A DNA stretch of 56,403 nt from a virus. Its lineage: Duplodnaviria; Caudoviricetes. The stretch's first letter is position 1. Each line of letters starts with the position of its first letter. The translations under genes were made by a program, and so were the position numbers. This document shows positions 1 to 20,482 of the stretch, piece by piece. The notes below the pieces were generated by a model. It was given only the letters and a program-made list of their open reading frames with translations. It made no database searches and was not told the DNA's origin. The stretch is taken from positions 1 to 56,403 of IMG/VR virus record IMGVR_UViG_3300048584_000026; one strand, given 5' to 3'.

Positions 1-113
1 TCGTGATTGCAGACCATGATCTTGAGTTCCGCGTAGCCAAGCCTGCGCCATTCGGCGCTGGTCTCCCGCTCGTCTACGGACTCCTTCCTCGGGGCTGCCT
101 TGATACGTCTCAC
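1..113 (-). CDS. VRR-NUC-like nuclease, N-terminal part (runs off the window start)
   Basis: Hand translation from GTG at 113, which overlaps the MTase stop: MRRIKAAPRKESVDERETSAEWRRLGYAELKIMVCNH. Its position between polymerase and helicase matches Chi-like gene order. Confidence 0.5.
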   Translation of the reverse strand, partial: MRRIKAAPRKESVDERETSAEWRRLGYAELKIMVCNH

Positions 114-841
114 AGGCCGCCCATATCCATATCAGCGATATTGACAGGGCATGTCATCAGCCGGTCGATCATGTGCGTGGTGCAGGGTCCGTCGTGGCCG
201 CGAACCCAGACGACCCACATGCAGTCCATGAGCGGGGAGTTGCCTCGCTCCTGCGCAAGGAAAGCCGGACGCCATGTCAGATTCAGTTCCATGTAGGGCT
301 TCGTCTCACGGAAAAGCGCCTTGCGGTTCTTCGTGTTCCAGTACTGGGCTTTGAGGAGCATGACGACCACGGGGGCGACTTCTAGCGCCCGGCGGATGAA
401 CTCCTCGGCTGCCTTGAATGGCGGGTTGGTGATTACGGCGTCGAACGCATGGCCTTCGAACTCAGGGTCCGGGCCATCAGAGGCAAGGAAGTCGATGCCC
501 CCCGTACCCCCTTGAACGTCCGGTCTCAGGTCCGTCCCGATGACACGGTAGCCGAACTCCCGCAACGGGCGAACCATCTGCCCGTCTGCACAAGCCGGTT
601 CAAGAACCAGTGCGTTCGCAGGCAGGAGGGGCGCAATGTAAGGGAGAAGGCTGTAGGTGCAGTCAACCGGCGTCGGGTAGAGGTCAGCGGGCTTGCGCGC
701 CCATTTCGCCATAGCAGCGGCGATAGCGCCTGCGATCCCGCCGTACGTATCGACCGCCTTCTCGGTAACACCGAACTGCTCCAGATCGACGGAGGTATCT
801 TCGCCGGGCATGTCCCAGAAATCGTCGTGCGACATCATCAA
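110..841 (-). CDS. Orphan DNA amino-methyltransferase (N6-A/N4-C)
   Basis: DLYPTP, SAM-binding motif I LEPACADG, catalytic motif IV ITNPPF; ends ADMDMGGL. Confidence 0.85.
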   Translation of the reverse strand: MMMSHDDFWDMPGEDTSVDLEQFGVTEKAVDTYGGIAGAIAAAMAKWARKPADLYPTPVDCTYSLLPYIAPLLPANALVLEPACADGQMVRPLREFGYRVIGTDLRPDVQGGTGGIDFLASDGPDPEFEGHAFDAVITNPPFKAAEEFIRRALEVAPVVVMLLKAQYWNTKNRKALFRETKPYMELNLTWRPAFLAQERGNSPLMDCMWVVWVRGHDGPCTTHMIDRLMTCPVNIADMDMGGL

Positions 842-3012: not shown

Positions 3013-3029
3013 GACAGGTCAAAGAAGGT

Positions 3030-3089
3030 GGCGGCTCGGGTGATCCTCCCGCCGGGAACCCCCAACAGGTCCCGAGCCGCCGAGCCGCC
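3030..3089. other. Intergenic hairpin between SSB and polymerase
   Basis: GGCGGCTCGGG (3030-3040) pairs with CCCGAGCCGCC (3071-3081); the right arm is partly duplicated at 3081-3089. Confidence 0.55.
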
Positions 3090-3090
3090 C

Positions 3091-3741
3091 TTACAGGCCG
3101 CCCATGTCGTCGCCATCATCTCCGCCGAAGCCGCCTTCGTCGTCGTCGTCGAACGACGAGATCGCGGCATCCTTGGAAATCCCGCCTTCGGCGATCAGCG
3201 GACCTTCGCGGCGGAGGCGGACGGCGCGCAGGCTGGCGTTGATACGCTTGCCATGCTCGTTGTCCTGCCACCACGGCTGGATCAGCATGTCGATGTAATA
3301 GCCCGCCTTGATCTCCTTCTTGATCTCCTCGGGCGATTCCATTTCCGACTTGTCCGGGTGGAGGACGGTCGGCTTTTCCGTTTCACGGCTGGCGACGATA
3401 AACGCCCCATCGTATTCCGGCTTCTTGGTCGGCTTGCCGTCACGAACGAACTTGAGGTCGTCCTTGATGTCCGTTCCCTTGTTGCGCTCCTTGAGCATGT
3501 CCATGCAGACATCCAGCAGGAGGTCGATGGCAGGCTGGTGGGTCTTGACAGGGAGGATGCCGGTCATCGAGTACGCCGGGGTGTCCTTCTCGTTCTTGCG
3601 CCACATCTTGTCGATGTGGGGATAGCTGGCGCGAACGTCGGCGATCAGGATGGTGCCATCACTGTACACCTTGCAAATCGTCTGTCCGGCAGCGTTCTTG
3701 GCCGACCGGAGAACGGTACGGGGGGTGCTGGTCTCACTCAT
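3091..3741 (-). CDS. ssDNA-binding protein (DUF2815 / T7 gp2.5-like)
   Basis: VRASYPHI...GKRINASLRAVR motif, acidic tail, position next to polymerase; ends DDGDDMGGL. Confidence 0.8.
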   Translation of the reverse strand: MSETSTPRTVLRSAKNAAGQTICKVYSDGTILIADVRASYPHIDKMWRKNEKDTPAYSMTGILPVKTHQPAIDLLLDVCMDMLKERNKGTDIKDDLKFVRDGKPTKKPEYDGAFIVASRETEKPTVLHPDKSEMESPEEIKKEIKAGYYIDMLIQPWWQDNEHGKRINASLRAVRLRREGPLIAEGGISKDAAISSFDDDDEGGFGGDDGDDMGGL

Positions 3742-3757
3742 ATTCAAGTTCCTTGTT

Positions 3758-5044
3758 TCACGAGTTACCGATGGCATCCGTTTCATCATCGAAAGCGGAT
3801 ACCGCTGACGCGATCCCTTCCCGTTTATCGGAACTGGGGATCATCGTCACTTTCCCCGGCGGCTGGTGAACGAAAGGCGCAATGCGCTTGTCGTTCGCCT
3901 TAAGACTGCCGCCGAGAGAAACCCTTAATAGCTGAACTGCCTGCGCAGGGGAAATGAATTTTTGCTCGTACATGTCGAGATCAGTAATACCGCGACCGCG
4001 AAGCATACGACGAGCAGCCGCTTCGTCTGTCCATTTACGGTTTCCGGCCCGGCCCATCCCGAGTTTTTGTCCCGGAACTTCGACATCCATTTCCAACTTC
4101 TTAAGCAAGTAGTCGTACATCTCCCGGAAATACTTCTCCAGAATCGGTCGCCACTCATAAATCTGGGCAAGACGCTCGACCGGGACTTCGCTGTACACTG
4201 GGAGACGTAGTTCGGAAACCATTTCCTGTTCTATCACGGCCACGGCTTGAGCCGGGGACATCTCGTTGTCGTCGAGATCGTCGAAACTGGCCGCCGCGAG
4301 CTTGACGTTTACCGCTGCCAGCGCCGGACAAGTGAACCGGGCAGGGCAGTACTCGCAGGCAATCGGATCGGGGTTGTACGGTGCCTCTGGGTCCCATGCC
4401 TTGTGAGCAGCCGCCCGGTAACGCTCTCCGAACTCAAGAAGCTGGTCGCGCGTGATGGTCCAGACATCGTAATTCTCTCGACGCGGTTGCACGATCTGGA
4501 TTTCGATCTCTTGGAAGTCGTACAGCCAGTCAAGCTCCTCGAACGCGCCAAGCGCGTAAGCCTGCCCCTGTTCGTTGTCCTCTGCATCCACCCAGACCTT
4601 GCCGTATTTGAGGTCCTTGACCCGCAGCTTGCCCCACTCGGCGCTGATGTGGTCCGAAGTCCCGAAGCTCGGAACGGGGGTGTACTTGGATAGATCGACC
4701 TTGACTTCGACGTAGTGCTTGCCCGGCATAGTCGAGACGAGCGAAACGTATTCTTCGACGTAGGAAATCATTTCCTCGGTGATCTCGATCTCGAACCCGT
4801 CCTTGGTGTGAACGGTGCCGAGATACCGATATGGGTTCCCGCTGGTCAGCCACTCCTCGGCAAGCCAGTGAGCGATAGAACCTTCGGCGGCGTAATAGCT
4901 GGGGTTATCGCCCGCCAGATGACCGGCGATCAGTGATCGCGGGCATCGCATCCAACGGTGTGCGCTGGACGGCCCAAAGATCGAGTGACCCGTGGCGTTC
5001 TTGTCCGCGAGCATCTGATCTGTGATAGGATGATGTTCGGACAT
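3758..5044 (-). CDS. Cas4-like PD-(D/E)XK exonuclease (DUF2800)
   Basis: HSIFGPSSAHRWMRCP, FGTSD, DLKYG, QGQAYALG and C-terminal CEYCPARFTC cysteine cluster. Confidence 0.85.
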   Translation of the reverse strand: MSEHHPITDQMLADKNATGHSIFGPSSAHRWMRCPRSLIAGHLAGDNPSYYAAEGSIAHWLAEEWLTSGNPYRYLGTVHTKDGFEIEITEEMISYVEEYVSLVSTMPGKHYVEVKVDLSKYTPVPSFGTSDHISAEWGKLRVKDLKYGKVWVDAEDNEQGQAYALGAFEELDWLYDFQEIEIQIVQPRRENYDVWTITRDQLLEFGERYRAAAHKAWDPEAPYNPDPIACEYCPARFTCPALAAVNVKLAAASFDDLDDNEMSPAQAVAVIEQEMVSELRLPVYSEVPVERLAQIYEWRPILEKYFREMYDYLLKKLEMDVEVPGQKLGMGRAGNRKWTDEAAARRMLRGRGITDLDMYEQKFISPAQAVQLLRVSLGGSLKANDKRIAPFVHQPPGKVTMIPSSDKREGIASAVSAFDDETDAIGNS

Positions 5045-5048
5045 GGTA

Positions 5049-5111
5049 TCCCCGGTTTAGTAGGAAGCCGGGTTCGGGTCGCGGAGACCCGGCTTCCTAC
5101 TAAACCGGGGA
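5049..5111. promoter_or_regulatory. Perfect 25-bp inverted repeat covering the exonuclease RBS
   Basis: TCCCCGGTTTAGTAGGAAGCCGGGT (5049-5073) and its exact reverse complement (5087-5111), 13-nt loop, just upstream of the ATG at 5044. Confidence 0.8.
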
Positions 5112-5169
5112 AGGATCAAGGCTTTGCAGTCCAATCCCCTTCCCCGGCCCTCGGTGCGACCCGAGGGGC

Positions 5170-5217
5170 TGCGCAGGGCGCTCTCCAGCGGGATCAACTG
5201 GAGCAACGCCCTGCGCA
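5170..5217. other. Second intergenic hairpin
   Basis: TGCGCAGGGCG/CGCCCTGCGCA outer stem with CTCCAG/CTGGAG inner stem. Confidence 0.6.
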
Positions 5218-5231
5218 AGGCGGCTGACCTG

Positions 5232-5597
5232 TTACAGGCCGCCGTTATCGTCGCCTTCCGGTTCCTCGGCGAGCTTTTCTTCCGCCGCATCCCAGTAGGT
5301 CTGCCAGTTGGCCGCGTCAGCGATCAGGTTCGCCAGCTTCTCGTGGCCCTGCGCCTTGATAAGGTCCTTGGCAGCGGCATCGCCGAACTTCTGCTGGACC
5401 TCAAGGAACTTGTCGCGAAGCTGTTCCGCCGTGAAGTCCGGCTTGGCGGCCTTGGCTTCGGCGGCTTCGCGCTTCTTCTTCTCGGCGGCAGTTTCCTTCT
5501 TCTCTGCCGGGGCGGCAGCCGCCGGGGCAGCAGCGCCACCCTCAAGCAGCGCCCGGATCGCAGCAACGTCAGCCGCAATCTGTTCAATCATACCCAT
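5232..5597 (-). CDS. Ala/Lys-rich hypothetical replication-module protein
   Basis: GGAGA RBS, typical codon use, position upstream of the exonuclease; ends EGDDNGGL. Confidence 0.75.
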   Translation of the reverse strand: MGMIEQIAADVAAIRALLEGGAAAPAAAAPAEKKETAAEKKKREAAEAKAAKPDFTAEQLRDKFLEVQQKFGDAAAKDLIKAQGHEKLANLIADAANWQTYWDAAEEKLAEEPEGDDNGGL

Positions 5598-5653
5598 GTG
5601 TGCTTCTCCGTTTGTAGGGTTCGACCGCGCCCCGAATCGGAGCGACGGGGCCT

Positions 5654-5682
5654 TCCTGCCCGATCCACGGGCTTACTGTCAA
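5654..5682 (-). promoter_or_regulatory. Putative sigma70-type promoter for the replication operon
   Basis: TTGACA on the minus strand at 5677-5682 in a divergent intergenic region; weak -10. Confidence 0.4.
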
Positions 5683-5754
5683 TAGCAGATCACTTACTTG
5701 CGTTAAATACCAATCTAGGGCAAGTTCCCCCCGAATCGAGGACAAGGCACCCCC

Positions 5755-6024
5755 ATGTCAGCAGAAAAATTTCCCGTTCCCGCTTGGGTAGAGCCGGAAC
5801 AGAGGGCCGAATTTGCCGTTCGTCTGGCGGCCTTCTACCACGATAAAAGCGGGAGCCTCGGGAAACTTTCCGTGGCTCTCGGCGGCTCGTCGTCAATGCT
5901 GCACATGCAGTTGAACACCACCGGGACCATCACCGTAAACACCTGTATCAAGATCGAGGAACTTCTGGGTCGCGAGACCTTCCCGCGCGAATTTTTCCGT
6001 CCTGACATTTTCGTTGCGGAGTAG
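5755..6024 (+). CDS. Cro-like HTH protein
   Basis: GSLGKLSVALGGSSS helix pattern and C-terminal REFFRPDIF typical of Cro/YdaS-like proteins; lies upstream of the primase. Confidence 0.6.
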   Translation: MSAEKFPVPAWVEPEQRAEFAVRLAAFYHDKSGSLGKLSVALGGSSSMLHMQLNTTGTITVNTCIKIEELLGRETFPREFFRPDIFVAE

Positions 6025-6032
6025 ACCGAGTC

Positions 6033-8504
6033 ATGGCCGCACGGCGCTACATGGAGGAGTTCGGCGTTAAGATCGCCGGGAACGGGTATGAGGTCATCCC
6101 GATCATTCCCGGCGAAAAACGCCCGGCGGGTAAGAACTGGCAGAAGCTCGCCGGTACGGTAGAGGGGGTCCACGACTACCTCGCCGACGGCAAAGGCGAT
6201 CACGGGATCGGCATTAAGGCCCGTCTATGCCCCAGCGTTGACATCGACGTTCTGGACGAGGCGGTAAACGCTGAAATCCAGCAGATCGTTCTGGATATAG
6301 TCGGTGATACGCCCCTAAAGAGAATTGGTTTCGCGCCGAAGGTCCTTTGGGTCTACCGGGCCGAGAAGGACTCGATGTTCCCGAAGGTCGATACCGGCAT
6401 GTGGGTTGATTCCCAAGGTCGGTCATCGAAGGTAGAAATCCTTGCCGACGGCCAGCAGTTTGTCGCGGCGCACATCCACCCAGACACAGGCAAGCCGTAC
6501 AAGTGGCTGACGGATTCACCGCTGACCCTAGGCCGATCTGATCTGCCGGTGCTTACGCACGAGCAGGCGAACCAGATCAAGGAGAAGGTCCTCCAGCTTT
6601 TCCTAGCGCACGGCTGGACCAAGAAATCCAAGAACGCGATCACGCGGCTGGTCAACCCTCTCGACGACGACGATCCGTTCAGCGCCTACAGGCCCAAGGT
6701 CCAGATCGGCGACCGGGAGCTTGAGCGCAAGCTGTTCCAGATCAAGGACAACACAGACCACGATGTCTGGGTCCAGATCGGCATGGCGCTGTACCACCAG
6801 TACGACGGAAGCGAGCAGGGTTTCGAACTCTGGGATCGTTGGTCCTCCAGCGCACACAATTACAGCGAGGAGGAGTGCCGCAAGCGTTGGCCCAGCTTCT
6901 CGAACAAGGACAATTCGCACACGCCGATGACGTGTCGGATCATCCTCAAGCTCGCCAAGACTTCCGAGAAAGAGGAGATCGAGGAGAAGTCCAAGGACTT
7001 CGCCGACCGGCTGGCTCTGGCGGGCAGCACGGACGAGCTTGTCGCGGTTTGCGACGAGATCAAGGTGACAGAGTTCCCGAACCACGTCCGGGAGCTTATC
7101 ACCGGCAAGGTCCGCGCCAACTGGAAGCGGCTCACCGGGGACAACCCACGTATCGGTTTCATCCGTGAGCTTATCCGGTTCGAAAACCGCGAAATCATTT
7201 CCGCTCCGCCGTGGGTGAAGCCGTGGGTCTACTGCTCGCAGACCGACGAACTGTTCAACATGGTGAACCGCACCCAGCTTGACCGGGCAGCCTTTAACGT
7301 GGCCCACGCCCGGTTCATGCTCACACCGCAAGAGCGGCTGGAGGGCAAAGCGGTCCCGGAGACCCAGCCTGTTGACGCCGTGGTGAACCTGTTCCAGATT
7401 CCGGTCGTCTACAATCGCATGTTCATGCCCGGTCAGCCGACCCTCTACTCCATGGACGGGATCGACTACGCGAACAGCTACACCGAAGAAGGTATCCCGG
7501 AGCTTCCGGGGAACCTGTCCCCGGTCGAAGAAGAAGCGATCCAGATATTCCTCGGCCACTTGGAGCATATCATCGCCAACGAGAACGACCGGCGTATCTT
7601 CCTCGATTTCCTGACCTACATCGTGAAGAACCCCGGACAGCGGATTAACTGGGCGATCCTGTTGCAGGGCGCAGAGGGCGACGGTAAGTCGTTCTTCTCC
7701 GTCGTTCTGGAGGCCGTTCTGGGTACCAACAACATCAACATGATTGCCGGGAACGCGCTGGAGGAAAAGTACAACCCATGGGCCGAGAACGCCCTCGTCT
7801 GCTTCATCGAAGATGTCCGGTTGCATGGCGCTAATCGCTTCGACGCGATCAACACGCTCAAGCCGATGATTACGAACAGCCGCGTCTCGATCCGGCGGAT
7901 GCAGACGAACATCTACACGGTCGTCAACACGATGAATTACATCCTGACCGCGAACGTGAAGGACGCTATGCCGGTCGGCGACGAGGACAGCCGTATCTTC
8001 CCGATCTTTACCCGGTTCCAGCGGTCGAGCGATCTGGACCGCTTCAAGACAGACAACCCGCACTATTACGACCGGCTGTTCGCGATCCTCCAGTTCGCCG
8101 GGGCGCTCCGCCAGTTCTTCTTGCTGCGGAAGATCAGCCCCGACTTCAATCCGAAGGCCCGTGCGCCCAAGTCGAGCTATCGCCGCGAGATGATCCTGCT
8201 GAACAAGTCGGAGGAGGTCACGGCTCTGGAGGACACGCTGGAGGTCAGCGATCAGCCGGACTACAGCGAGTTCCTGCTGGACAGCGGCAAGCTTGCCGAT
8301 CACTTCATGGGAACCGATGCTCTCGCCCCGCGTAGTAAGGCTCTGAGCCGTCTGTTGAGCCAGTATGGGTTCACGCTGCTGGGGCGCTTCAAGGTGAACG
8401 GAGAGAAGCGCCAGTATTGGTCAATGAAACCGTGGGCGTGGCCTGAGGACGACAACAAGCGCGGTGACGCGATTCGGGACTACCTCGATCCGGAGGGCTT
8501 GTGA
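6033..8504 (+). CDS. Bifunctional primase-polymerase with PriCT-2 and SF3-like helicase domains
   Basis: IPIIPGEKRP...GIGI...VDIDV prim-pol; WVQIGMALY...WDRWS PriCT-2; Walker A GAEGDGKS; ends DPEGL. Confidence 0.9.
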   Translation: MAARRYMEEFGVKIAGNGYEVIPIIPGEKRPAGKNWQKLAGTVEGVHDYLADGKGDHGIGIKARLCPSVDIDVLDEAVNAEIQQIVLDIVGDTPLKRIGFAPKVLWVYRAEKDSMFPKVDTGMWVDSQGRSSKVEILADGQQFVAAHIHPDTGKPYKWLTDSPLTLGRSDLPVLTHEQANQIKEKVLQLFLAHGWTKKSKNAITRLVNPLDDDDPFSAYRPKVQIGDRELERKLFQIKDNTDHDVWVQIGMALYHQYDGSEQGFELWDRWSSSAHNYSEEECRKRWPSFSNKDNSHTPMTCRIILKLAKTSEKEEIEEKSKDFADRLALAGSTDELVAVCDEIKVTEFPNHVRELITGKVRANWKRLTGDNPRIGFIRELIRFENREIISAPPWVKPWVYCSQTDELFNMVNRTQLDRAAFNVAHARFMLTPQERLEGKAVPETQPVDAVVNLFQIPVVYNRMFMPGQPTLYSMDGIDYANSYTEEGIPELPGNLSPVEEEAIQIFLGHLEHIIANENDRRIFLDFLTYIVKNPGQRINWAILLQGAEGDGKSFFSVVLEAVLGTNNINMIAGNALEEKYNPWAENALVCFIEDVRLHGANRFDAINTLKPMITNSRVSIRRMQTNIYTVVNTMNYILTANVKDAMPVGDEDSRIFPIFTRFQRSSDLDRFKTDNPHYYDRLFAILQFAGALRQFFLLRKISPDFNPKARAPKSSYRREMILLNKSEEVTALEDTLEVSDQPDYSEFLLDSGKLADHFMGTDALAPRSKALSRLLSQYGFTLLGRFKVNGEKRQYWSMKPWAWPEDDNKRGDAIRDYLDPEGL

Positions 8505-11992: not shown

Positions 11993-12014
11993 GTTTTGTT
12001 ATGTGAAGTTCACT

Positions 12015-12346
12015 GGGGCAAGATCAGGGGCAAGATCAGGGGCAAGATCGGATCATGCCCCTCGTTTTCGGCCACTTTGGGGGGAAAATGAATCAGAAAT
12101 CCCTTCCCGCGAGGGGCAAGATCGCCCGTGTTTTGATCTTGCCCCTGATCTTGCCCCTGATCTTGCCCCTGAGAAAATACTGAATTTCCTTACTTATTTC
12201 GAGATACCCCCCTAAAGGGGCAAGATAATCTTAAAAACGAAGCTCTGTATACGAGGAAAAACTTGCCGTGTTAAGTGACGAACACATAACTTTGGTGAAA
12301 TTTTTTCCCACAGCCTGAATAAGGGAAAATCGGTCGATCTTGCCCC
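12015..12346. repeat. Iteron-like GGGGCAAGATC array (about 10 copies, both orientations)
   Basis: Forward at 12015, 12027, 12039, 12113 and 12217 (1 mismatch); reverse at 12051 (1 mismatch), 12135, 12147, 12159 and 12336; adjacent AT-rich tract. Confidence 0.9.
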
Positions 12347-12583
12347 TCGGATGCCTCGTTCATAAAAGTCGGTCAGACTCATTAACAGAAATTCGTTCGA
12401 CCGGGTGCGGCCCTCCAGCACCCGAAAACCGGCATCGCCAAGCTTCGTTTGCACAGATCAGACAGGAACTTGGACCAACTTCGGAAATGATTTCGCGATC
12501 CGGAAATGCCTAGGAGCAGATAACCGGAAATCATTTCCAATAGCGAGGTCATACGCGAAATCGGGAATGTCAGAAGAAAAGCG

Positions 12584-12595
12584 GCTCAGCGCCCC
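12584..12595 (-). other. Probable cos (cohesive end) site GGGGCGCTGAGC
   Basis: 10/12 match to the phage Chi cohesive end GGTGCGCAGAGC (recalled from literature); opening the genome here restores Chi-like gene order; lambda-type terminase and portal present. Confidence 0.55.
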
Positions 12596-12782
12596 CACCC
12601 CCGCTGGCCCGCTCTGCCTATAGTACCTAAAGGGTCTATCGCTGATTCATTATGCCCTAGGCCCCGTTCTGGCGGCCTGTGAGTAATGATTCAGGGCGGC
12701 CCGCTAGGCCCCTAGCTGAATCATTTTCGTGCAATCCTGAGGCCCTGCACAAGGCCCAGCCGCTCGCCCTTGTTGCGGGCAT

Positions 12783-12816
12783 AAGAAAAGGGCCGCCGGG
12801 TTTCCCCAGCGGCCCT
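12783..12816 (-). terminator. Rho-independent terminator closing the 12.8-18.5 kb operon
   Basis: Minus strand AGGGCCGCTGGGGAAACCCGGCGGCCCTTTTCTT. Confidence 0.75.
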
Positions 12817-12838
12817 GTTGCGTCCGATTGTCCGGACC

Positions 12839-12976
12839 TCAGGCGTTCAAGCTATCGCATAGGCGGGCCACCTCAGCGGCGGCCCTATCAGCGGCCACGC
12901 TATCCCCTCGCCTCAGGGCCGCCCGCCTGTCCCTGTCCGCCGCTAGGGCGAGGTCCGCTATATGCTGCGAGTTCAC
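12839..12976 (-). CDS. Small hypothetical protein (45 aa, not in ORF track)
   Basis: GTG overlaps the upstream stop; MNSQHIADLALAADRDRRAALRRGDSVAADRAAAEVARLCDSLNA. Confidence 0.45.
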   Translation of the reverse strand: MNSQHIADLALAADRDRRAALRRGDSVAADRAAAEVARLCDSLNA

Positions 12977-13212
12977 AGGCGGCCCCCTTTATCGCAGGCC
13001 CGGCGGCCCGTGAGGCCCGCCCGTCCGCCGGTTCGCCTGTCCCTGAGGGCGGCCCTGTCCCGCTTATCCCGTTGCCTCAGCCGCAGGGCCTCAGCATAGG
13101 CCGCGATATGCGCGAAAGCGAATCCCCCAAAATAGGCGGCCTCGCCATAGTCGCAACAGGTGGCCGCGTGGCCGCAGGGTTGAATAAAGCGGGCCACGAT
13201 TAGAGACCCCAC
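12973..13212 (-). CDS. Hypothetical protein
   Basis: Fills the operon; Cys-containing; start uncertain. Confidence 0.45.
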   Translation of the reverse strand: MGSLIVARFIQPCGHAATCCDYGEAAYFGGFAFAHIAAYAEALRLRQRDKRDRAALRDRRTGGRAGLTGRRACDKGGRL

Positions 13213-13415
13213 AGGGCGAGCGATTGCCCCACAGACAAGCCTTGCGCCTTGTCCACTTGATAGGCCCCCCAGATCAGCCCAGCCGTTGCGAGGGCCACGG
13301 CTAACAGGATTGCGATTCCCATTCGGTCCGCATTGCGTTTACGGACCTCAGCCGCAGACAGGCGGGCCTTGCGGACATAGCGGCCACGGGGGGCGGGTTG
13401 CGAGTTATGGCGCAT
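13200..13415 (-). CDS. Small membrane protein
   Basis: Basic N-terminus followed by TM helix MGIAILLAVALATAGLIWGAY; ends WGL. Confidence 0.6.
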   Translation of the reverse strand: MRHNSQPAPRGRYVRKARLSAAEVRKRNADRMGIAILLAVALATAGLIWGAYQVDKAQGLSVGQSLALWGL

Positions 13416-13429
13416 TAGATCAGCCCCCC

Positions 13430-13582
13430 TTAGCAACAGGGACGGACAGGGCCGCCCGCGTAAGGGGAAACGATTGCGGGGCGTACCTCGCGCCCGTGGC
13501 GATTGTACAGGGGGCCTGTGTAGGGCGTGAACCGTTCGGCAATGTCCCCCCAGCGGGGCGAGCGGGTAATGGGAAGGCGCAT
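13430..13582 (-). CDS. Small hypothetical protein
   Basis: AAGGAGTC RBS before MRLPITRSPRW. Confidence 0.55.
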   Translation of the reverse strand: MRLPITRSPRWGDIAERFTPYTGPLYNRHGREVRPAIVSPYAGGPVRPCC

Positions 13583-13654
13583 AGATGGACTCCTTGTGTG
13601 GCGGGCCACCGTGGCCCGTAGGGCCATGCTACGGGCCACCCTTTAACAAACGGT

Positions 13655-13685
13655 AAAGGCCGCCGGACTCTCGCCCGGCGGCCTT
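13655..13685 (-). terminator. GC hairpin, possible weak terminator
   Basis: AAGGCCGCCGG...CCGGCGGCCTTT on the minus strand. Confidence 0.5.
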
Positions 13686-13713
13686 GCCTTGCCCAGTGTT
13701 GCCCCGAACGGGT

Positions 13714-14364
13714 TTAGAGGCCCGGACCTCGCGCGAGGTACTGCACCTTAGCCCCGTGAATCCGGTCCGTCCCGTGGTCCCTATCGCAGACACGGAACTT
13801 GTCGCGCGGGACCTGTACGCCCGCCCTCAGGGCGTCCAAAAGGGACTCTAGGCTGTAGACCTTGCGCCCGCGTCCGTCCGCAAGGCCCGTGAACTGCCAC
13901 GCCCCGGACGGGACGCGCGGCCCATGGGCGTTTTCAGGGCGTGAGATTCCGCCGCAGGCGTGAACCGCAAACCACTCGCCACGCGGCTCGCGTGTTTCTG
14001 TGTACCTGAAAACGACGGGCGAGCCGTTCGCCCATAGGTCCCGCATATAGACCCGGACGACTGGCGAGGTATCGGAATCCCAGTCGTCCGAGTCCCCCAG
14101 TTCGTCCCAGTCGAACGAGGCGAGGGCGTCCGCAAGGGCCTCGCGTCCCCCCGTGTCCGCCCAGTTCGTTATGGCGTCCCGCGCGGCCTGATAGTCGAAA
14201 CCGTCAGGGCGTCCGCAGGATTGCAGGTCCGCCGCAAGTTCCCGCAACACAGCGGCCACTGAGTCCGGGCCTGACGGGTACGCAATCAGGATAAATTCAT
14301 CCTGAGACCGCAGCCGCTCCATTCCGCTCGCAGCCGTGCAAAGGGTTTCCAATCTGTAGCGCAT
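13714..14364 (-). CDS. Hypothetical protein
   Basis: AAGGAGTC RBS, 216 aa; ends GPGL. Confidence 0.7.
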   Translation of the reverse strand: MRYRLETLCTAASGMERLRSQDEFILIAYPSGPDSVAAVLRELAADLQSCGRPDGFDYQAARDAITNWADTGGREALADALASFDWDELGDSDDWDSDTSPVVRVYMRDLWANGSPVVFRYTETREPRGEWFAVHACGGISRPENAHGPRVPSGAWQFTGLADGRGRKVYSLESLLDALRAGVQVPRDKFRVCDRDHGTDRIHGAKVQYLARGPGL

Positions 14365-14386
14365 TACTTGACTCCTTGTCTGTGAT

Positions 14387-14632
14387 TTAGGCCGCCCAGC
14401 TAGGGCGGGTTCCGTTGAATAGATAGGCCCTGCAATCGTCTGCCATTGCGAGGGCCGCCGGTCCGTCGTCCGCCTCAGGACAATCTGTGTCTACCAGATC
14501 ACCACGCGAGTCGAACTCAAACCAGTAAGCGCGGGACGCCCTGAGGCTTGAACACGGCCACCCCCGGTTAAAGCTCGCAACGCCCGCCGCAGAAACCCGG
14601 ACCTTGTTTCCGGAAATGATTTCTACGCCCAT
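14387..14632 (-). CDS. Hypothetical protein
   Basis: Coupled (TAATG); WFEFDSRGDLVD; ends WAA. Confidence 0.7.
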   Translation of the reverse strand: MGVEIISGNKVRVSAAGVASFNRGWPCSSLRASRAYWFEFDSRGDLVDTDCPEADDGPAALAMADDCRAYLFNGTRPSWAA

Positions 14633-14862
14633 TAGGCGGCCCCCCTTCCATCAATCGTGAGGCGCGCGCGGCGGACGCAATAGGCGTGAAAGTACCGCAG
14701 GCGCGAGCCGTTTGCGTTTTTGGGCCTGCGGTACCGGCGGGCGTCCGCCTGTACTCGCAGGGCGTCAACCTTGGACGAATTGAGGGCGTGGAAATCCGTT
14801 TCCAGATCACAGCCCGCCGCTGTCAGGATTGCGCGCGCGTCCCATGGGTCAAGGCGGGCCAT
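14632..14862 (-). CDS. Hypothetical protein
   Basis: DFHAL...YRRPKNANGSRLRYF; ends GAA. Confidence 0.7.
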   Translation of the reverse strand: MARLDPWDARAILTAAGCDLETDFHALNSSKVDALRVQADARRYRRPKNANGSRLRYFHAYCVRRARLTIDGRGAA

Positions 14863-14863
14863 G

Positions 14864-15550
14864 TCAGCGGCCCCCCTTGTTTAGCAGGGCCTCGGGGGCA
14901 TCTATCCCGTAGTGGCCCGCCGCAACGCCCGCCGGGTCCCGTTGCGCCTGTCTGGCAATCCACGACTCAGCCTCAGGGATGCTGGCAAGGCGGGCGAGAA
15001 TAGCGGGGCGGGCCGCGTCCGGGTGGCAGTAGCTAACGGCCACCTTGCCCCGTCCCGCAGCCTTTAACCGGCGGACTCGGCATATCTGCGAGTCGCCCAC
15101 ATTGCGCCCGGACCACGTGGCCCCGTCCGGGCCTGTGAACTGCACAAAATGCACTCGCCCGCCCCAGTTATGGCGGCCCGTCCAATGCACGGACACAGGG
15201 AAAGACAGGCCGCCGGGCCAATCCGTGACTCGCATAGGCTCGCCCGCCTTAGGTTGCAGCCCGAAACACGGAATCCCTGTCAGGTACAACACAGCGTCCC
15301 CATGGGCCAACATGGCCGCCCGTTCCCTGAGGCTCGCGCAATCGTAACACGAAAACGCGGCGGACTCGCCCTCGCCCGTCCGGGCGTACCCGGTACCGCC
15401 ACCCAGCTTGAACGGCTTCACCTGTCCGCAGTCTGCGCAACGGAACCCGGCGGGCATATACTCAGGCAAGAAACGGAACGCGCGGGCGGACTTGCACGGG
15501 TCAAGGGCGCAAGCCGCGTCAAGTTCGGCATAGGTTTCAAATACTCGCAT
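14864..15550 (-). CDS. Hypothetical Zn-binding protein
   Basis: CADC and CYDC pairs; AGGAGTCGAA RBS. Confidence 0.7.
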   Translation of the reverse strand: MRVFETYAELDAACALDPCKSARAFRFLPEYMPAGFRCADCGQVKPFKLGGGTGYARTGEGESAAFSCYDCASLRERAAMLAHGDAVLYLTGIPCFGLQPKAGEPMRVTDWPGGLSFPVSVHWTGRHNWGGRVHFVQFTGPDGATWSGRNVGDSQICRVRRLKAAGRGKVAVSYCHPDAARPAILARLASIPEAESWIARQAQRDPAGVAAGHYGIDAPEALLNKGGR

Positions 15551-15749
15551 TTTTCGACTCCTTGGAAACGGTTTCCGGGCGGGCCTCGCGCGTTGCGGCG
15601 GCCCAGCCGTCTAAAAGGCCCTTTGCGTACCCGCTCGCCCATAGCAGGGCGAGGGCGGGCAACATAAAGGCGAGAAAGTACCGGCGGGCGTACCGTCTAC
15701 AGGCGGCCCAGTTAGCGGCGGATTCCTCGGGCGCGAGGGGCCTCAGCAT
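15537..15749 (-). CDS. Small membrane protein
   Basis: TM segment YFLAFMLPALALLWASGY; coupled. Confidence 0.55.
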   Translation of the reverse strand: MLRPLAPEESAANWAACRRYARRYFLAFMLPALALLWASGYAKGLLDGWAAATREARPETVSKESKNASI

Positions 15750-17020
15750 TAAGCGGACTCGGCTGAGGTATCACAGGGCAGGGCGGCCACCCCCAGCGAT
15801 TGCGCGAGGGCGTGAATCTCGGGCCAAGCGAACCTATGGCAACCCGCGACAAAATCGCCCGAAGCCTCAACCCGGTTGACGTTGAACTGACCGACTCGGA
15901 TTGTCCGCAGGCCCGCCGGTTCCCATGCCTCGCCCCGTTCCCTGACACAAACAAGGAACTGATAGACCCGGATAGCCTCGCGCAACGGGACCCGCGCGCC
16001 CTGAGAGGTCTCAAGCGTTCCGCCGCTGATCTCGCCCGCCTTGTTCCGCTTGACGCCCGTTGCCCTGATATAGGCCGCCCCGTCAGTCGAACGGGGCAAG
16101 CTATGGGTTGCCACCTTGAGTCCCTCGCGCCATCCCGCGAGTTTTTCCTCAGCGTTTGCCCAGCGCAAGGCTGCGAGCCGTTCCGCGTTCGCCTTACGCT
16201 GTTGCTTTGCAGCCTCGCGCCTCGCCCGTTCCTTAGGCGTCAGGCGGGCGAGGGCGCGGGCCTTGCGGGCCTCACGTTCCGCGATAATCGCGGCGGCCTC
16301 AGCGTCTACGGCTGCGAACGAGTCCGGAAAATCCGCCGGGATATGCAAGGGCGCGAAAAATTCCGCGTAGTCCTGCACCATTGCCCAGCGTTCCCGCAAC
16401 ACAGCGGCCACCTGTTGCGCCTCAGTAAGGCGGGCGGGTTCGCTATCCTCGCCCGGCGTCCACGTATGGCCCGGAACCCATGGGCAATAAATGTCCCCCC
16501 GCTTGTTCCGGAACAAGTCCGCCCGGTCCCGGTAGACCTGAATCAGGTGAGTCAGGTTGCCTGTGTGGTCTACGGCTGAGGGCGTAGGGACCTCGCCCCT
16601 ATCGTCAAGGCCACAGCGGGCCTGCCAATAGTCCGCCCCGGCGGAATAGCCCCCGATATGCGGGACCTCAAAAACGCGGCCACGAGTCCACGGCTCGCCT
16701 TGTTCGCTCGCCCCGACAAGGTGGCGAACCGCGCCAGTAGCGCCTGCAATGTGGCCGCCCGTTGCGGGTCCCCAGTCATTAGGAACGACTAGCAAGCAAA
16801 GGGCCTCGCGCCCATGAATCGGTTCAAGCCGTGCAACGGGGGTTTGGTAGCTGTAGAAGATACGCCCGACAAAACGAACGCGCGGGCAATCTGCGGACGC
16901 GGCCCCGGAACTGAATCCGAAGTAGGAACCTTGACCGGGCGTAGGGGAACGCCCGAACGGCTGCGACTGGGTGGCCCATGCATGGGCAACTTGCGAATGA
17001 GTGCTAAAGACAGTTTTCAT
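15749..17020 (-). CDS. Large hypothetical early protein
   Basis: AGGAGTCGAA RBS before MKTVFSTH; coiled coil; C-terminal LETSQGARVP...VAGCHRF. Confidence 0.75.
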   Translation of the reverse strand: MKTVFSTHSQVAHAWATQSQPFGRSPTPGQGSYFGFSSGAASADCPRVRFVGRIFYSYQTPVARLEPIHGREALCLLVVPNDWGPATGGHIAGATGAVRHLVGASEQGEPWTRGRVFEVPHIGGYSAGADYWQARCGLDDRGEVPTPSAVDHTGNLTHLIQVYRDRADLFRNKRGDIYCPWVPGHTWTPGEDSEPARLTEAQQVAAVLRERWAMVQDYAEFFAPLHIPADFPDSFAAVDAEAAAIIAEREARKARALARLTPKERARREAAKQQRKANAERLAALRWANAEEKLAGWREGLKVATHSLPRSTDGAAYIRATGVKRNKAGEISGGTLETSQGARVPLREAIRVYQFLVCVRERGEAWEPAGLRTIRVGQFNVNRVEASGDFVAGCHRFAWPEIHALAQSLGVAALPCDTSAESA

Positions 17021-17042
17021 GGGTTCGACTCCTTGTTTGATC

Positions 17043-17213
17043 TCAGGCGGCCCGGCGGGCGGCCGCGCGGTAGTTATCGGCTTGTGCATCATAGCGGGCG
17101 GCCCGCTCGCCCCATGCCTCAGCCTCGGGCGAGTAACCGGCGGCCTGATAGGCGGCCCGCGCGGCGAGTTCGGAATAGTGGTCCGCTTTCGCGCTGTAGT
17201 TCGTTGCTTTCAC
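17043..17213 (-). CDS. Small Ala-rich protein (56 aa, not in ORF track)
   Basis: AAGGAGTC RBS, GTG start; MKATNYSAKADHYSELAARAAYQAAGYSPEAEAWGERAARYDAQADNYRAAARRAA. Confidence 0.6.
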   Translation of the reverse strand: MKATNYSAKADHYSELAARAAYQAAGYSPEAEAWGERAARYDAQADNYRAAARRAA

Positions 17214-17230
17214 AGTCTGGACTCCTTGTC

Positions 17231-17464
17231 TCAGTTAGAGGGGGCAAAGTATCGCGCGAGGTCCCGCGCGAAAGTACGGGATTCGATTGCAGCTAGTGCA
17301 AAATCCGAATGGGCAAACGTGAGGCGGGCAAAGGACATATGGTCGCATTGCGAGTCGCAATCCCAGCCGCGCGCGGCCATGGCCGAATCCAGTTCCTCAG
17401 GGTCAAAAGAGACCTCAGGAACCGCAAAGACAGCGGACAGGCCCAAAAGGTCCCCCGCGTTCAC
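17231..17464 (-). CDS. Hypothetical protein
   Basis: GTGA-coupled to the upstream gene. Confidence 0.6.
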   Translation of the reverse strand: MNAGDLLGLSAVFAVPEVSFDPEELDSAMAARGWDCDSQCDHMSFARLTFAHSDFALAAIESRTFARDLARYFAPSN

Positions 17465-18510
17465 GCCCGGACCTCACGGGCGAGGGCCGCGCGTCCCTCA
17501 GCGGTGGAATCGTAAATATCGACTCCATATCGGGCGGCCATGGCGCGGGCCGCGCGTTCCGCGTCCGGGTACCGGGGGGCGTATTGGATAGCGTCAACGG
17601 GCGAGCCGTCCGCAGTCTCAGCCGCAACACGATAACAGGGCGAGCCGTCCGCCTCAGCGTCCGCCACTGTGATACGCTCCACGCGGGCGAGCGGGTCCGC
17701 CTCGCAAGGGTCAAGGGCCGCCAGAATGGATTGCACCACGTCCCGCGCGCCACCTGTCAGGCCGCCGCGCGTTTCTCGCGCAATCTGCGCAGCCCTTGCG
17801 ATACGTGAGGCGGGCGAGGGTTCCGCGCCTGCGGTACCGAGGGCCGCGTAAGCCCCTTTGACGGCTGAATCCATTTCATCCCGCGCGCTATCGCCCGCCG
17901 GGCCTATGCAATGCGCAGTCTCATTAGCCACGATTGCGAGGGTTAGCAGGGCCTCGCGCAACCCGTCCGCCTCAGCCTTGAGAGGCGCAAGGGCGTTGCG
18001 TTCGTCCGCAAGGGCGGCCATCCGCCGCAGTTCCTCGCGCGCCATCCGGCGGCCCTCGCCCGTGCCATGCATCAAGGCAATCTCAATAACGCCCGCCGCA
18101 GTTGCCCAGTTCGATTCAATGGAAACGGTTCCCGCAGTCTCAGGCCCGGCGGGTACGGGTTCCGGTTCCGCGCCCTGCGATTCCACGAACGCGGCAAGGT
18201 CCCGCGAAAATTGCCGCCTAATCGCGGCCCGCCACATAACCCGCTGATTTTCAGGCAACGCGCGGCCATGCAACCCGGAACGGGTCCGCAACTCCACGTC
18301 AACGCTGACCCGCTCGCCCGTTGCCGCGTTGCGGTCAAAAGTCCGAACGACTTCCCCCCAGTACTCGCGCCCGCTGTGTTCAAAGCGGAACGCCTGCGAA
18401 TGAGTGCGGCCCCGTTCGCGCCAGTAACCCGAGGCGCGAACGACTGGCCCGAAGTAGACAGTCAAGGACTCGCTGAGGGTCCGCGCGGTTTCATCCCGGT
18501 GAATTTTCAT
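17461..18510 (-). CDS. Hypothetical multi-domain early protein
   Basis: GGAG RBS before MKIHRDET; first gene of the block. Confidence 0.7.
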   Translation of the reverse strand: MKIHRDETARTLSESLTVYFGPVVRASGYWRERGRTHSQAFRFEHSGREYWGEVVRTFDRNAATGERVSVDVELRTRSGLHGRALPENQRVMWRAAIRRQFSRDLAAFVESQGAEPEPVPAGPETAGTVSIESNWATAAGVIEIALMHGTGEGRRMAREELRRMAALADERNALAPLKAEADGLREALLTLAIVANETAHCIGPAGDSARDEMDSAVKGAYAALGTAGAEPSPASRIARAAQIARETRGGLTGGARDVVQSILAALDPCEADPLARVERITVADAEADGSPCYRVAAETADGSPVDAIQYAPRYPDAERAARAMAARYGVDIYDSTAEGRAALAREVRA

Positions 18511-18604
18511 AGTCCAAACTCCACGAATCAAGCGGCGGCCCTTTGCCGCACCCTGTCCGCTGTACCTGACAGAACTTAACAGAGTCTAGCTTTATCACAG
18601 ACAG

Positions 18605-19015
18605 GGCGGACCCCAGCCGCTCGCCCGGCGGACCCCAGCCGCTCGCCCGGTCCGCCGGGATGACGAATCGCGCGGGATTCCATGCCCCCGCGCGCCTAGG
18701 TGACGCGCGCGCCTATACGTACGCGGGCGCGCTCGCCCGTGTATACGCGCGCGGGCGCGCTCGCCCGTGTATACGCGCGCGGGCGCGCACACGGGGAACC
18801 GGGAGACCCCCCTGTAGTGGTGTGACAGCACCCCCTCTGTAGTGGTGTGACAGATCGTTCGACCAACCGGCCATCGCGCCGCCGGATCACCACGCTCGCC
18901 CCGTGGCCGATCCTGCCGCGCTCGGTCTCGAAATGATTTCCGCTGCTCGACCTGATCGAACAACCGTAACACCCCCTCTGTAGCGGAGTCAGGGGACCCC
19001 CTCTGTAGCGGAGTC
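18605..19015. repeat. Cluster of tandem and inverted repeats
   Basis: 22-bp unit x2 (18605-18648); 28-bp unit x2 plus a partial copy (18722-18788); CTGTAGTGGTGTGACAG at 18812 and 18837; ACCCCCTCTGTAGCGGAGTC at 18971 and 18996. Confidence 0.9.
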
Positions 19016-19027
19016 GGGGCAGCAGGA

Positions 19028-19056
19028 TTGACAGTCTAGGATGTTTCGTGCATCTA
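19028..19056 (+). promoter_or_regulatory. Putative promoter of the accessory arm
   Basis: TTGACA-17 nt-CATCTA. Confidence 0.5.
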
Positions 19057-19085
19057 AGCAGCCCGAATCAAGGTCGAGGAGTTTC

Positions 19086-19370
19086 ATGCAAGAAGTTTAC
19101 GAGATCGAGCAGCGGGAGAACCGTCAGGCTCAGATAGAGCATATGGACATCGGTGACACGGTGTCCATATCCCGGCGGATCGAGATGATGCACGGGTTTG
19201 CGGAAGGCGCTATTGCTGAACACAACCGCCAGCTTCGCGGCATCGCCGATCAGCAGACGCACCGGGCGCGCAGGCGCTTCAAGGAGCGCAAGTTCAAGGT
19301 CGAGAATGGTTCGTTTATGACGCGGGAAGGGGCGCTGGTAATCACCGCCGCTATCACGCGGGTCGAGTAA
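19086..19370 (+). CDS. Hypothetical protein
   Basis: GAGGAG RBS before MQEVYEIE. Confidence 0.7.
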   Translation: MQEVYEIEQRENRQAQIEHMDIGDTVSISRRIEMMHGFAEGAIAEHNRQLRGIADQQTHRARRRFKERKFKVENGSFMTREGALVITAAITRVE

Positions 19371-19391
19371 CACCGAAGGAGTCGAGATAAG

Positions 19392-19721
19392 ATGGTCGAT
19401 AGGTTCGAAGGATACAAGACGAAGAACGGCAAGCTGTTCTTGTCAGAAGAAGCAGCGATCCGGGAGGAAGTGCTGGACGATCTCTGTGAGATCATGCCTG
19501 AGTTGGTTTTGATCCGGCCAAAGCTGGACAGCAACCTCCGCGCTCTGGCAACCGCCATGGGTCCCATGCTGGACCTCGTAAGGGTCCCATCTGAGGGCCA
19601 TATGCCGTGTTGTGTAAACACCCCGCGCGGTCAGGATAACCACACCAATTGCGCCGCGCACCCGGAACACCAGACGGACGCTGTTGTCGATCTGGCTGAC
19701 AGGCTCGCCGGTCGTGCCTAG
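19392..19721 (+). CDS. Hypothetical protein
   Basis: AGGAGTCGA RBS; YKTKNGKLFLSEEAA motif. Confidence 0.7.
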   Translation: MVDRFEGYKTKNGKLFLSEEAAIREEVLDDLCEIMPELVLIRPKLDSNLRALATAMGPMLDLVRVPSEGHMPCCVNTPRGQDNHTNCAAHPEHQTDAVVDLADRLAGRA

Positions 19722-19935
19722 GGTCCGGTCAATCACTATCGGTATGGCGCGGACTTACCAGCATCCGCACATCGCGTACGAGAACTTCCGGATCGAGGGT
19801 CAAGTGACCGTCGATCTGGAGGACGACGAGACGCCAGCCGAAGCCGCTGAGAAATCATTTCCGATTCTGCGCGAGCAGATGATCGCCACCTACAAGCAGT
19901 TCAAGCCGAAGGATGGCACAGGAGGTCGAGACTGA
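19714..19935 (+). CDS. Hypothetical protein
   Basis: Coupled; YENFRIEGQVTVDLEDDE. Confidence 0.6.
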   Translation: MPRVRSITIGMARTYQHPHIAYENFRIEGQVTVDLEDDETPAEAAEKSFPILREQMIATYKQFKPKDGTGGRD

Positions 19936-20240
19936 TGGGAAACACCGTATGGCAACGTCGGCGCAAGGCCGCCGAGATCGCTGGGCGCGAGGCTGCTGAC
20001 GGCGGGCCTGACCGTAGCGAGGAGTTCAAGGCTCTGGGTCTGGATGAATCCTACCACAAGGGCAGGCGTGAACGCGAAAGCGAAATGCAGGCGGCTCAGA
20101 CATACGAGAGCCACCCGCTCCGCCAGATCAGCCACGAGGCGAGCGATCTCTACAACCGAACCGAGAACCCCGAGGTTCGCGAACTGTCCGAGCTTATCGA
20201 GCGGATGGCAGACTATCTGCTGGAAAAGGAAGAATCCTGA
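19935..20240 (+). CDS. Hypothetical protein
   Basis: GGAGG RBS, TGATG coupling. Confidence 0.65.
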   Translation: MGNTVWQRRRKAAEIAGREAADGGPDRSEEFKALGLDESYHKGRRERESEMQAAQTYESHPLRQISHEASDLYNRTENPEVRELSELIERMADYLLEKEES

Positions 20241-20482
20241 TGCCCAAGAACGCTGAACCCGAGATCAAGCAGCGCCGCATGGCGATGATCGGCAAGGTCC
20301 TCGCTATTCAGGTTGAGCCGGGGACCAAGATTTTCCACCCCCTGACAGAGAAGCTGCTCGGGATCGTGGCAGATCGCCAGCCGGTCATCAATCACGACGA
20401 CAACGCGGTCTACCTGTCCACCGACGACTGGAACGCAGCGCAGGCCGCGCTCCCGGCAGCCCCGAAGCCAGTCAAGCACTGA
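20240..20482 (+). CDS. Hypothetical protein
   Basis: TGATG coupling. Confidence 0.65.
   Translation: MPKNAEPEIKQRRMAMIGKVLAIQVEPGTKIFHPLTEKLLGIVADRQPVINHDDNAVYLSTDDWNAAQAALPAAPKPVKH

Follow-up and report, generated by a model that had tools for sequence, protein, structure and literature searches.

The closest described counterpart of the locus analyzed here is the first-step-transfer DNA of phage T5, the only part of that genome that is sensitive to EcoRI and to CRISPR according to the relevant passages of two sources (bioRxiv 10.1101/866236, section 4.1.5; PMC5389539); a sensitivity confined in this way would explain why site avoidance might be limited to one region of a phage genome. The stretch that we studied, hereafter the window, is the whole 56,403-nt virus contig IMGVR_UViG_3300048584_000026 of IMG/VR, and the element in question is a block at 12596-18850 which the original prediction, made from the letters alone, had proposed as a GATC- and TCGA-depleted, restriction-proof and first-injected terminal region. 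In T5 as in the window, the segment is terminal and several kb long, the genes nearest the end (pre-early in T5) are transcribed towards that end, and a repeat-rich non-coding region marks the inner border, being the stop signal in T5 and comprising four repeat families of putative role here. T5 differs in having 10-kb terminal repeats and no cos, whereas the present phage has 12-nt cohesive ends and carries the block once in the window; moreover, homologues of T5 A1, A2 and dmp were not found among the 10 block proteins. In Casjensviridae (BcepNazgul genes 01-11; Chi gp63-gp75), a terminal operon likewise adjoins cos, is directed at the end, has a divergent control region and encodes mostly hypothetical proteins, but neither phage shows a purge limited to the block. 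Lambda is comparable in its leftward PL operon of early accessory genes, divergent from a rightward operon, and in its cos and gpA-type terminase; the PL operon, however, lies in the middle of the chromosome rather than at an end, and we know of no region-limited site avoidance in lambda. Under-representation of palindromic sites, as described genome-wide by Rusinov et al. (2018, PMC6286503), is also seen here, but the present purge is confined to one domain and includes non-palindromic 4-mers, and neither early genes nor injected DNA are mentioned in the passages of that paper that were searched (0 occurrences). Taken together, the region-limited purge is best read as a first-transfer type of vulnerability combined with site avoidance.

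By its Pfam set and its synteny with Erythrobacter phage vB_EliS-R22L (R22L) along the whole window, the phage is classed as a Casjensviridae-like cos siphophage. We compared it with the uncultured relatives G001 (large terminase subunit, TerL, 93% identical), G003 (TerL 85%) and G002 (a fragment), as well as with R22L, Sphingomonas phage Carli, BcepNazgul and Chi. The counts behind the original prediction proved exact: GATC occurs six times in the block (13272, 13418, 14497, 14805, 16028 and 17039) and 15 times in 19081-20280, out of 475 in the whole window, while the roughly nine TCGA that had been estimated are nine by count, two of them (15554 and 17025) lying within the ribosome-binding motif AAGGAGTCGAA. 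Extrapolation from the rest of the window would predict 58.5 GATC in the block (Poisson 2e-18 for the six observed), and the trinucleotides of the block itself would predict 16.1 (P 0.004). In 2000 synonymous-codon shuffles of an open reading frame (ORF) set that extends to 18972, and hence holds eight GATC, the observed number was again low for both GATC (8 vs. 16.4 +/- 3.0, P 0.002) and TCGA (13 vs. 23.1, P 0.0035). Outside the block, 469 GATC stand against a Markov expectation of 443 in a remainder rich in GAT and ATC, and the rest of the genome is not selected on GATC. All six block copies indeed sit in the hexamer AGATCA/TGATCT (chance of all six in AGATCA, 1.4e-5), the contexts outside being AGATCG (147), CGATCC (119), CGATCA (77), AGATCA (73) and GGATCA (53). 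The further proposal that CGATC and GGATC are both missing from the block holds for this phage but, when its block is pooled with those of G001 and G003, only GGATC/GATCC is absent, with 0 copies vs. 59 expected from the rest and none of the 36 pooled GATC in that context.

GATC is not the most depleted word. Relative to the rest of the genome, CTTC/GAAG (8 vs. 79 expected), CGAC/GTCG (25 vs. 97), CTCC/GGAG (11 vs. 59), CATC/GATG (13 vs. 59) and TCGA (9 vs. 50) are all scarce, and the Markov observed/expected ratios within the block are 0.20 for CTCC, 0.22 for CTTC, 0.33 for CCAA, 0.37 for GATC and 0.41 for CGAC; codon shuffles gave the same picture for GAAG (3 vs. 22.1) and CTTC (5 vs. 21.2). 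The purged list thus comprises GATC (chiefly GGATC), TCGA, GAAG/CTTC, GATG/CATC, GGAG/CTCC, GAGC/GCTC and CGAC/GTCG, each depleted on both strands, and the many non-palindromic 4-mers in it render classical type II site avoidance insufficient on its own. The overall distortion is evident from the spread of tetramer log2 observed/expected ratios, which is 0.57 in the block vs. 0.22-0.31 in eight stretches of the same size in the window, and 0.57-0.72 in the blocks of the window, G001, G003 and R22L vs. 0.22-0.36 in other stretches (0.29-0.55 in R22L).

Selection on these words, rather than codon usage, is indicated by codon choices that track the neighboring base as word avoidance predicts, as evidenced by: 1) isoleucine codons, with an ATC/ATT ratio of 1/12 after G, where ATC would create GATC, 17/4 after A or T (Fisher 4.5e-5) and 1/7 after C, where it would create CATC; 2) glutamate codons, with a GAA/GAG ratio of 1/33 before G vs. 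42/25 before other bases (1.3e-9), including 24/7 before C; 3) aspartate codons before C, with a GAT/GAC ratio of 2/18 in the block vs. 70/92 in the rest; and 4) lysine codons after G, with one AAG and five AAA. The purge also extends to DNA that does not encode protein. Using a list of avoided words taken from G003 genes only, and hence independent of the window, we counted 175 avoided words vs. 546 expected in the block genes, 10 vs. 68.9 from 12817 to 13429, up to the first clear gene, 5 vs. 22.0 in the 205 bp that separate cosN from the terminator (P 1.5e-5; 4 vs. 16.7 with the window's own list), and 13 vs. 27.1 at 18601-18852. Normal density returned at 18853-19040 (24 vs. 20.2), and the 654 bp across cosN from the block held 49 vs. 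70.3; the window's own list left this border picture unchanged. In the window, G001 and G003 alike, the inner switch coincides with the first copy of CCCCCTCTGTAG, a word present in three or four copies at this border and nowhere else in the three genomes. These data establish that the purged domain spans the physical DNA end to a conserved repeat, including DNA outside the coding region and past the terminator, and that selection acts on double-stranded DNA words over the domain from cosN to CCCCCTCTGTAG. With purged flanks past the terminator and before the first gene, the domain is bounded by the DNA end and not by the transcript.

The outer border agrees with the cos that had been predicted at this point. 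The 12-nt GCTCAGCGCCCC at 12584-12595, directly before the block, forms both termini of the linear G003 contig, and the G002 contig ends there as well; the BcepNazgul record annotates a cos overhang of 12 nt, after which come 11 hypothetical genes directed leftward, and the right end of Chi carries gp63-gp75 directed at the end. Given these contig ends and the BcepNazgul and Chi layout, the block is the terminal operon of this phage family, at the physical end of the virion DNA. The proposed inner end at a repeat cluster stood as well, the border falling at ~18.85 kb within the repeats.

Related phages show where the purge recurs. The terminal blocks of G001 and G003 carry the same purge, which tracks block length (6 kb and 5 kb), with GATC at 0-4 per kb vs. 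~10 and GANTC at 4-13 per kb vs. 3. In R22L, the terminal 7.6 kb (1-7600) hold 14 ACC/GGT, where the rest of the genome would predict 188; the avoidance ends abruptly at 7.5-8 kb and applies to all three frames and both strands (ACC 12, GGT 2); only 3 of 72 threonine codons in this block are ACC (206 of 478 in the rest) and 1 of 189 glycine codons is GGT (61 of 617), while NAC/NAT stands at 6/43 before C vs. 170/79 before other bases (Fisher 1.7e-13). GGCC is likewise low there (13 vs. 55) and GANTC high (14.7 per kb vs. 3.6). To our knowledge, there is no explanation for this near-absence of ACC/GGT. In the terminal operon of Carli, GATC falls to 0.40 of its level in the rest, and GANTC reaches 5-12 per kb over four of the five kb vs. 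1.6 per kb in the rest. GATC depletion as a trait of the whole family was considered and rejected, with 33 copies vs. 41 expected in BcepNazgul and 52 vs. 26 in Chi.

The block is at home in its genome. CCWGG is absent from the whole window (~179 expected) and so from the block (16.7 expected); 32 of the 64 hexamer palindromes are absent from the window, among them CGATCG, for which alone 62 were expected, and RGATCY is absent as well. The 36 hexamer palindromes absent from the rest number 5 in the block vs. 82 expected. Since the block follows the same rules against palindromes and CCWGG as the whole genome, it is no foreign import. In the relatives, 38 (G001), 45 (G003), 36 (R22L) and 39 (Carli) hexamer palindromes are absent, from lists that differ (R22L has 148 CGATCG), and CCWGG is found 0, 2, 1 and 0 times, respectively.

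With respect to mechanism, we surmise with moderate confidence that the purged block is a first-entering, transiently unprotected DNA domain akin to the first-step-transfer DNA of T5. According to this proposal, the cos-bounded domain would find itself in the cell before phage protection has been set up; packaging would reach it last and ejection would start with it, perhaps pausing at the repeat cluster in the manner of T5 first-step transfer; the avoided words would be those read by host nucleases, or by an early nuclease of the phage itself, and would be tolerated in the other 50 kb but not in the block; and the orphan proteins of the operon would serve early takeover or protection functions. 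Lambda ejects its right end first, and this rule, together with conserved repeats that reach farther on the terminase-proximal flank of cosN, hints weakly at the proposed polarity. As a broader and doubtful conjecture, the cos siphophages of this clade may deliver their DNA slowly or in two steps, with the leading 5-8 kb readable as a bounded purge of short words and each list reporting the specificity of a first-minutes attacker (GGATC, GAAG and GATG here; ACC/GGT in R22L). Such an attacker could include systems with 3-4-nt motifs, whether PAM (protospacer-adjacent motif)-like or of a phosphorothioate type, or a host-shredding nuclease of the phage.

Several observations weigh against a first-entering, unprotected domain. 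With six GATC and nine TCGA left, a 4-bp cutter could still cleave the block, contrary to the term restriction-proof in the original prediction, and the avoidance of hexamer palindromes in the rest of the genome implies that protection after entry would be only partial. At least eight 4-mers are avoided, most of them non-palindromic, and they fit no known set of restriction enzymes. Depletion is unequal between strands for CTCC (0) vs. GGAG (10), CATC (2) vs. GATG (10) and CCAA (5) vs. TTGG (10), which hints at a contribution at the RNA level. The model system itself shows the effect faintly, word bias in T5 first-step-transfer DNA being only mildly raised (0.30 vs. 0.16-0.21). Among the relatives, BcepNazgul and Chi have the same terminal operon with no excess of word bias (0.28 and 0.33, matching the other stretches of their genomes), and the Carli genome is strongly word-biased throughout, its block (0.43) resembling its remainder. 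The ejection polarity is itself based on the lambda analogy and on a tentative cosB call, and no likeness to T5 A1, A2 or dmp or to known anti-restriction proteins was found among the block proteins.

Four other explanations deserve consideration. In one, the block would enter first and encode or switch on a frequent-cutting nuclease that shreds host DNA, with the remainder kept in the capsid for as long as the nuclease is active, so that the purge of the enzyme's words from the block would amount to self-immunity. We regard this as unlikely, although the avoided words rank with the most frequent ones of the host-like remainder (GATC 9.2, GAAG/CTTC 12.7 and CGAC/GTCG 15.7 per kb) and an early nuclease of the phage would explain why the phages with common block genes (the window, G001 and G003) have a common list, while R22L, with mostly different genes, has a different one (ACC/GGT, GGCC). 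T5 breaks down host DNA from the pre-early stage, as the pertinent passage of PMC5389539 has it, but none of the block proteins matched a nuclease family or fold, a single enzyme would need a very degenerate specificity, and the idea leans on the same inferred order of entry. Differential modification, in which the remainder is protected or marked by a sequence-specific modification and the block must avoid modifiable words or cannot be modified, seems a little less plausible still. The phage does encode a gamma-class N6-adenine methyltransferase (110-841) whose core is nearest M.TaqI, which acts on TCGA, and most of the avoided words contain GA, GANTC being the one GA word that is enriched; however, virion DNA would carry the modification in the block as it does elsewhere, and we know of no mechanism that confines methylation to one domain.

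Selection on the early transcript, against words that are cleaved by host endoribonucleases or toxins or that pair with or mimic AAGGAG ribosome-binding sites, is by a shade more improbable in our view. The domain does correspond roughly to one transcription unit, the 10 GGAG on the coding strand (where CTCC is wanting) are mostly ribosome-binding sites, and CATC, CCAA and GCAC are more depleted than their complements. On the other hand, GAAG (3) and CTTC (5) are depleted alike, the palindromes GATC and TCGA cannot be strand-specific, R22L is low in both ACC and GGT, and the purge extends beyond the operon on both sides, reaching cosN behind the terminator and the repeats ahead of the first gene. 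The original prediction had itself named codon usage of a recently acquired block as the account that would undo it; a compositional by-product of this kind, arising from an orphan module that evolves fast or was acquired horizontally and has amino acid and codon usage of its own, is very improbable and largely refuted. In its favor, the block proteins are rich in arginine (11.6%) and alanine (15.5%) and poor in lysine (1.8%), codon bias is weaker (ATC accounts for 0.42 of isoleucine codons vs. 0.82 in the rest), G+C is 65% vs. 61.6%, and the four phages compared, including BcepNazgul and Chi, all have little GAAG/CTTC and much CGCG in their terminal operons. Nevertheless, the codon shuffles, the dependence of codon choice on the neighboring base and the palindrome and CCWGG avoidance shared with the genome all speak against codon usage of an acquired block, the non-coding flanks are purged too, and the proteins are 57-87% identical to those of G001. 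Hypermutation or GC-biased conversion was also rejected, since G+C rises while third positions move from C to T; PAM avoidance was discarded in the window as well, where AAG (0.62) and GAA/TTC (0.78) are not purged by themselves.

If the purge does mark the DNA that enters first, sequence alone could predict the polarity of ejection and how far the exposed segment reaches, uncultured phages included, and the specificities of first-minutes host defenses could be inferred without knowing the host. The T5 rule that only first-transferred DNA is vulnerable would then extend to an unrelated family of cos phages, and the conserved orphan early genes would be singled out as candidates for takeover or protection. 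R22L, a cultured relative in which a trinucleotide is nearly gone over 7.6 kb of coding DNA, offers a case that is directly testable.

GANTC, said in the original prediction to be retained, is present but was understated there, being enriched in the block at 7.3-7.5 per kb vs. 3.2 per kb in the rest (39 vs. 26.7 in shuffles). The enrichment is 2.3- to 4-fold in the terminal operons of the window, G001, G003, R22L and Carli, with no such enrichment in BcepNazgul (1.4-fold) or Chi (0.6-fold). The motif is contained in the ribosome-binding motif CAAGGAGTC of the operon, and it is the site of the alphaproteobacterial CcrM methylase. A second overrepresented word is CCTCAG, of which the top strand and its complement hold 19:7 copies in the window, 21:0 in G003 and 13:9 in G001; CCTCAGC occurs 11 times in the block and not once in the remaining 50 kb. 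With C or G as the next base, CCTCAG is ~15-fold enriched and co-oriented (12584-18530, top strand), and R22L has an analogue in GCCTCGC (16:0). A Chi-like signal, addressing a nuclease that enters at the cos end, could be oriented in this way; however, 13 of the 16 coding copies lie in a single phase, NCT-GAG-G, and CCTCAG may thus be a by-product of GAAG/GGAG avoidance. GGGCGAG was rejected as a polar signal, its strands (20 vs. 13) showing no skew.

The features of the block and its borders are collected in Table 1. The leftward operon comprises 10 confident co-oriented genes (13430-18510) and two doubtful ones, a correction to the count of about 12 in the original prediction. Conservation in G001, at 57-87% amino acid identity, implies that the block genes are real and under constraint; five or six of them are kept in G003. 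ORF 18595-18972 overlies repeats and is probably not a gene.

Table 1. Features of the terminal domain and its surroundings (window coordinates; identities are at the amino acid level)
Feature	Position	Strand	Remarks
Iteron cluster AGGGGCAAGATC	12009..12350		3 direct copies (12014-12050), 3 inverted (12134-12172), others at 12112, 12216, 12335
Conserved cos flank with CGGAAAT repeats; candidate cosB, by inference only	12480..12583		Conserved in window, G001, G002, G003
cosN, 12-nt cohesive end GCTCAGCGCCCC	12584..12595		Contig ends of G002, G003; syntenic to BcepNazgul cos
Purged non-coding DNA with CTGAWTCA motifs, cosN to terminator	12596..12788		Avoided-word counts
Intrinsic terminator of leftward operon	12789..12816	-	12-pair stem, 10 G-C pairs, then T run
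Variable stretch with doubtful ORFs 12973-13212 and 13200-13436	12817..13429	-	Weak or no match in G001
Orphan gene, 50 residues	13430..13582	-	Ribosome-binding motif CAAGGAGTC; 76% in G001
Orphan gene, 216 residues	13714..14364	-	71% in G001
Orphan gene, 81 residues	14387..14632	-	85% in G001
Orphan gene, 76 residues	14632..14862	-	77% in G001, 47% in G003
Orphan gene, 228 residues, Cys-rich (CxxC pairs)	14864..15550	-	86% in G001, 63% in G003
Orphan gene, 70 residues, hydrophobic center	15537..15749	-	
423-residue protein, phrog_7247	15749..17020	-	Start is ATG at 17020, behind ribosome-binding motif
Orphan gene, 56 residues	17043..17213	-	
Orphan gene, 77 residues	17231..17464	-	No match in G001 or G003
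First gene of leftward operon, 349 residues	17461..18510	-	Start at 18510 behind GGAG ribosome-binding site
Purged leader/control region	18511..18852		22-nt repeat x2 (18605-18648), 28-nt x3 (18706-18789), 25-nt x2 (18807-18854)
CCCCCTCTGTAG repeats	18831..19020	+	Copies at 18831, 18972, 18997; inner border of purge at first copy
First gene of divergent rightward operon	19041..19370	+	GATC-rich, outside purge

The ~530 bp of non-coding DNA at 18511-19040, shared by the leftward and the divergent rightward operons, carries four families of direct repeats. Over 18605-19020 these are a 22-nt unit in two copies, a 28-nt unit in three and two kinds of 25-nt unit in two copies each, both of the latter kinds built on the word (C)CCCTCTGTAG; the repeats are likely operators or promoters. 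A simple scan for a sigma-70-like promoter of the leftward operon found none. On the replication-gene side of cos, the AGGGGCAAGATC iteron cluster is GATC-rich, has an 85-bp spacer between its direct and inverted sets, and is a candidate origin or terminase-binding array; the right end of R22L has a like iteron design with a different repeat unit.

None of the 10 block proteins scored above threshold against Pfam, NCBIfam or PADLOC, and against PHROGs only families of unknown function were matched; as a hypothesis, an anti-defense role would find nothing for or against it in these protein sequences. The 349-residue product of the first gene has 12 relatives only, and its Atlas model was poor (predicted local distance difference test score [pLDDT] 0.51) and gave no usable match. 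The 423-residue protein belongs to the widespread phage family phrog_7247, of unknown function, with one BFVD match carrying the label DUF8033. Its AlphaFold2 model has a mean pLDDT of 90.3; Foldseek against the PDB gave 0 matches at E <= 0.001, a wide VIA-align search returned generic helical-bundle rows only (Z 5.3-7.1, residues 149-260), and a scan of bacterial genomes revealed no relative. It matches uncharacterized phage proteins of phiCbK and phiAxp-2, and in phiCbK-like phages its relatives are located in the terminal repeats.

The window represents a near-complete cos siphophage (97% completeness in IMG/VR) with the gene order of BcepNazgul and Chi. On the minus strand, Pfam identified a large terminase of the gpA type (52685-54883), a lambda-type portal, an S49 protease, a major capsid protein of the E type and a tape measure protein; it also recognized a replication module with a family-A polymerase, an Enc34-type single-stranded DNA-binding protein, a DUF2800 nuclease and a primase-helicase. 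TerL is 45-50% identical to those of AH2, BcepNazgul, phiAxp-2, Carli and the Erythrobacter phages R22L and R16L. Neither the block by blastn nor 24 kb by megablast had a match among 50,697 phage records, an Rfam scan of the window returned 0 families, among sequencing runs one DNA run with a 0.05 share of the words and no RNA run came up, and a literature search, the scope of which did not extend to supplements, found no paper on vB_EliS-R22L and nothing on Casjensviridae together with cohesive ends. The contig ends (1-110 and 55615-56403) fall inside helicase and VRR-NUC genes, with ~1.2 kb missing relative to R22L; the assembly thus crossed cos and broke elsewhere, and the break is not a genome end. 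Close to one of these ends lies the DNA methyltransferase gene (110-841, minus strand, 243 residues), the product of which matches phrog_799 (E 2.8e-46), has a catalytic core nearest the N6-adenine methylase M.TaqI (E 1e-5) and is short enough to be without a separate target-recognition domain.

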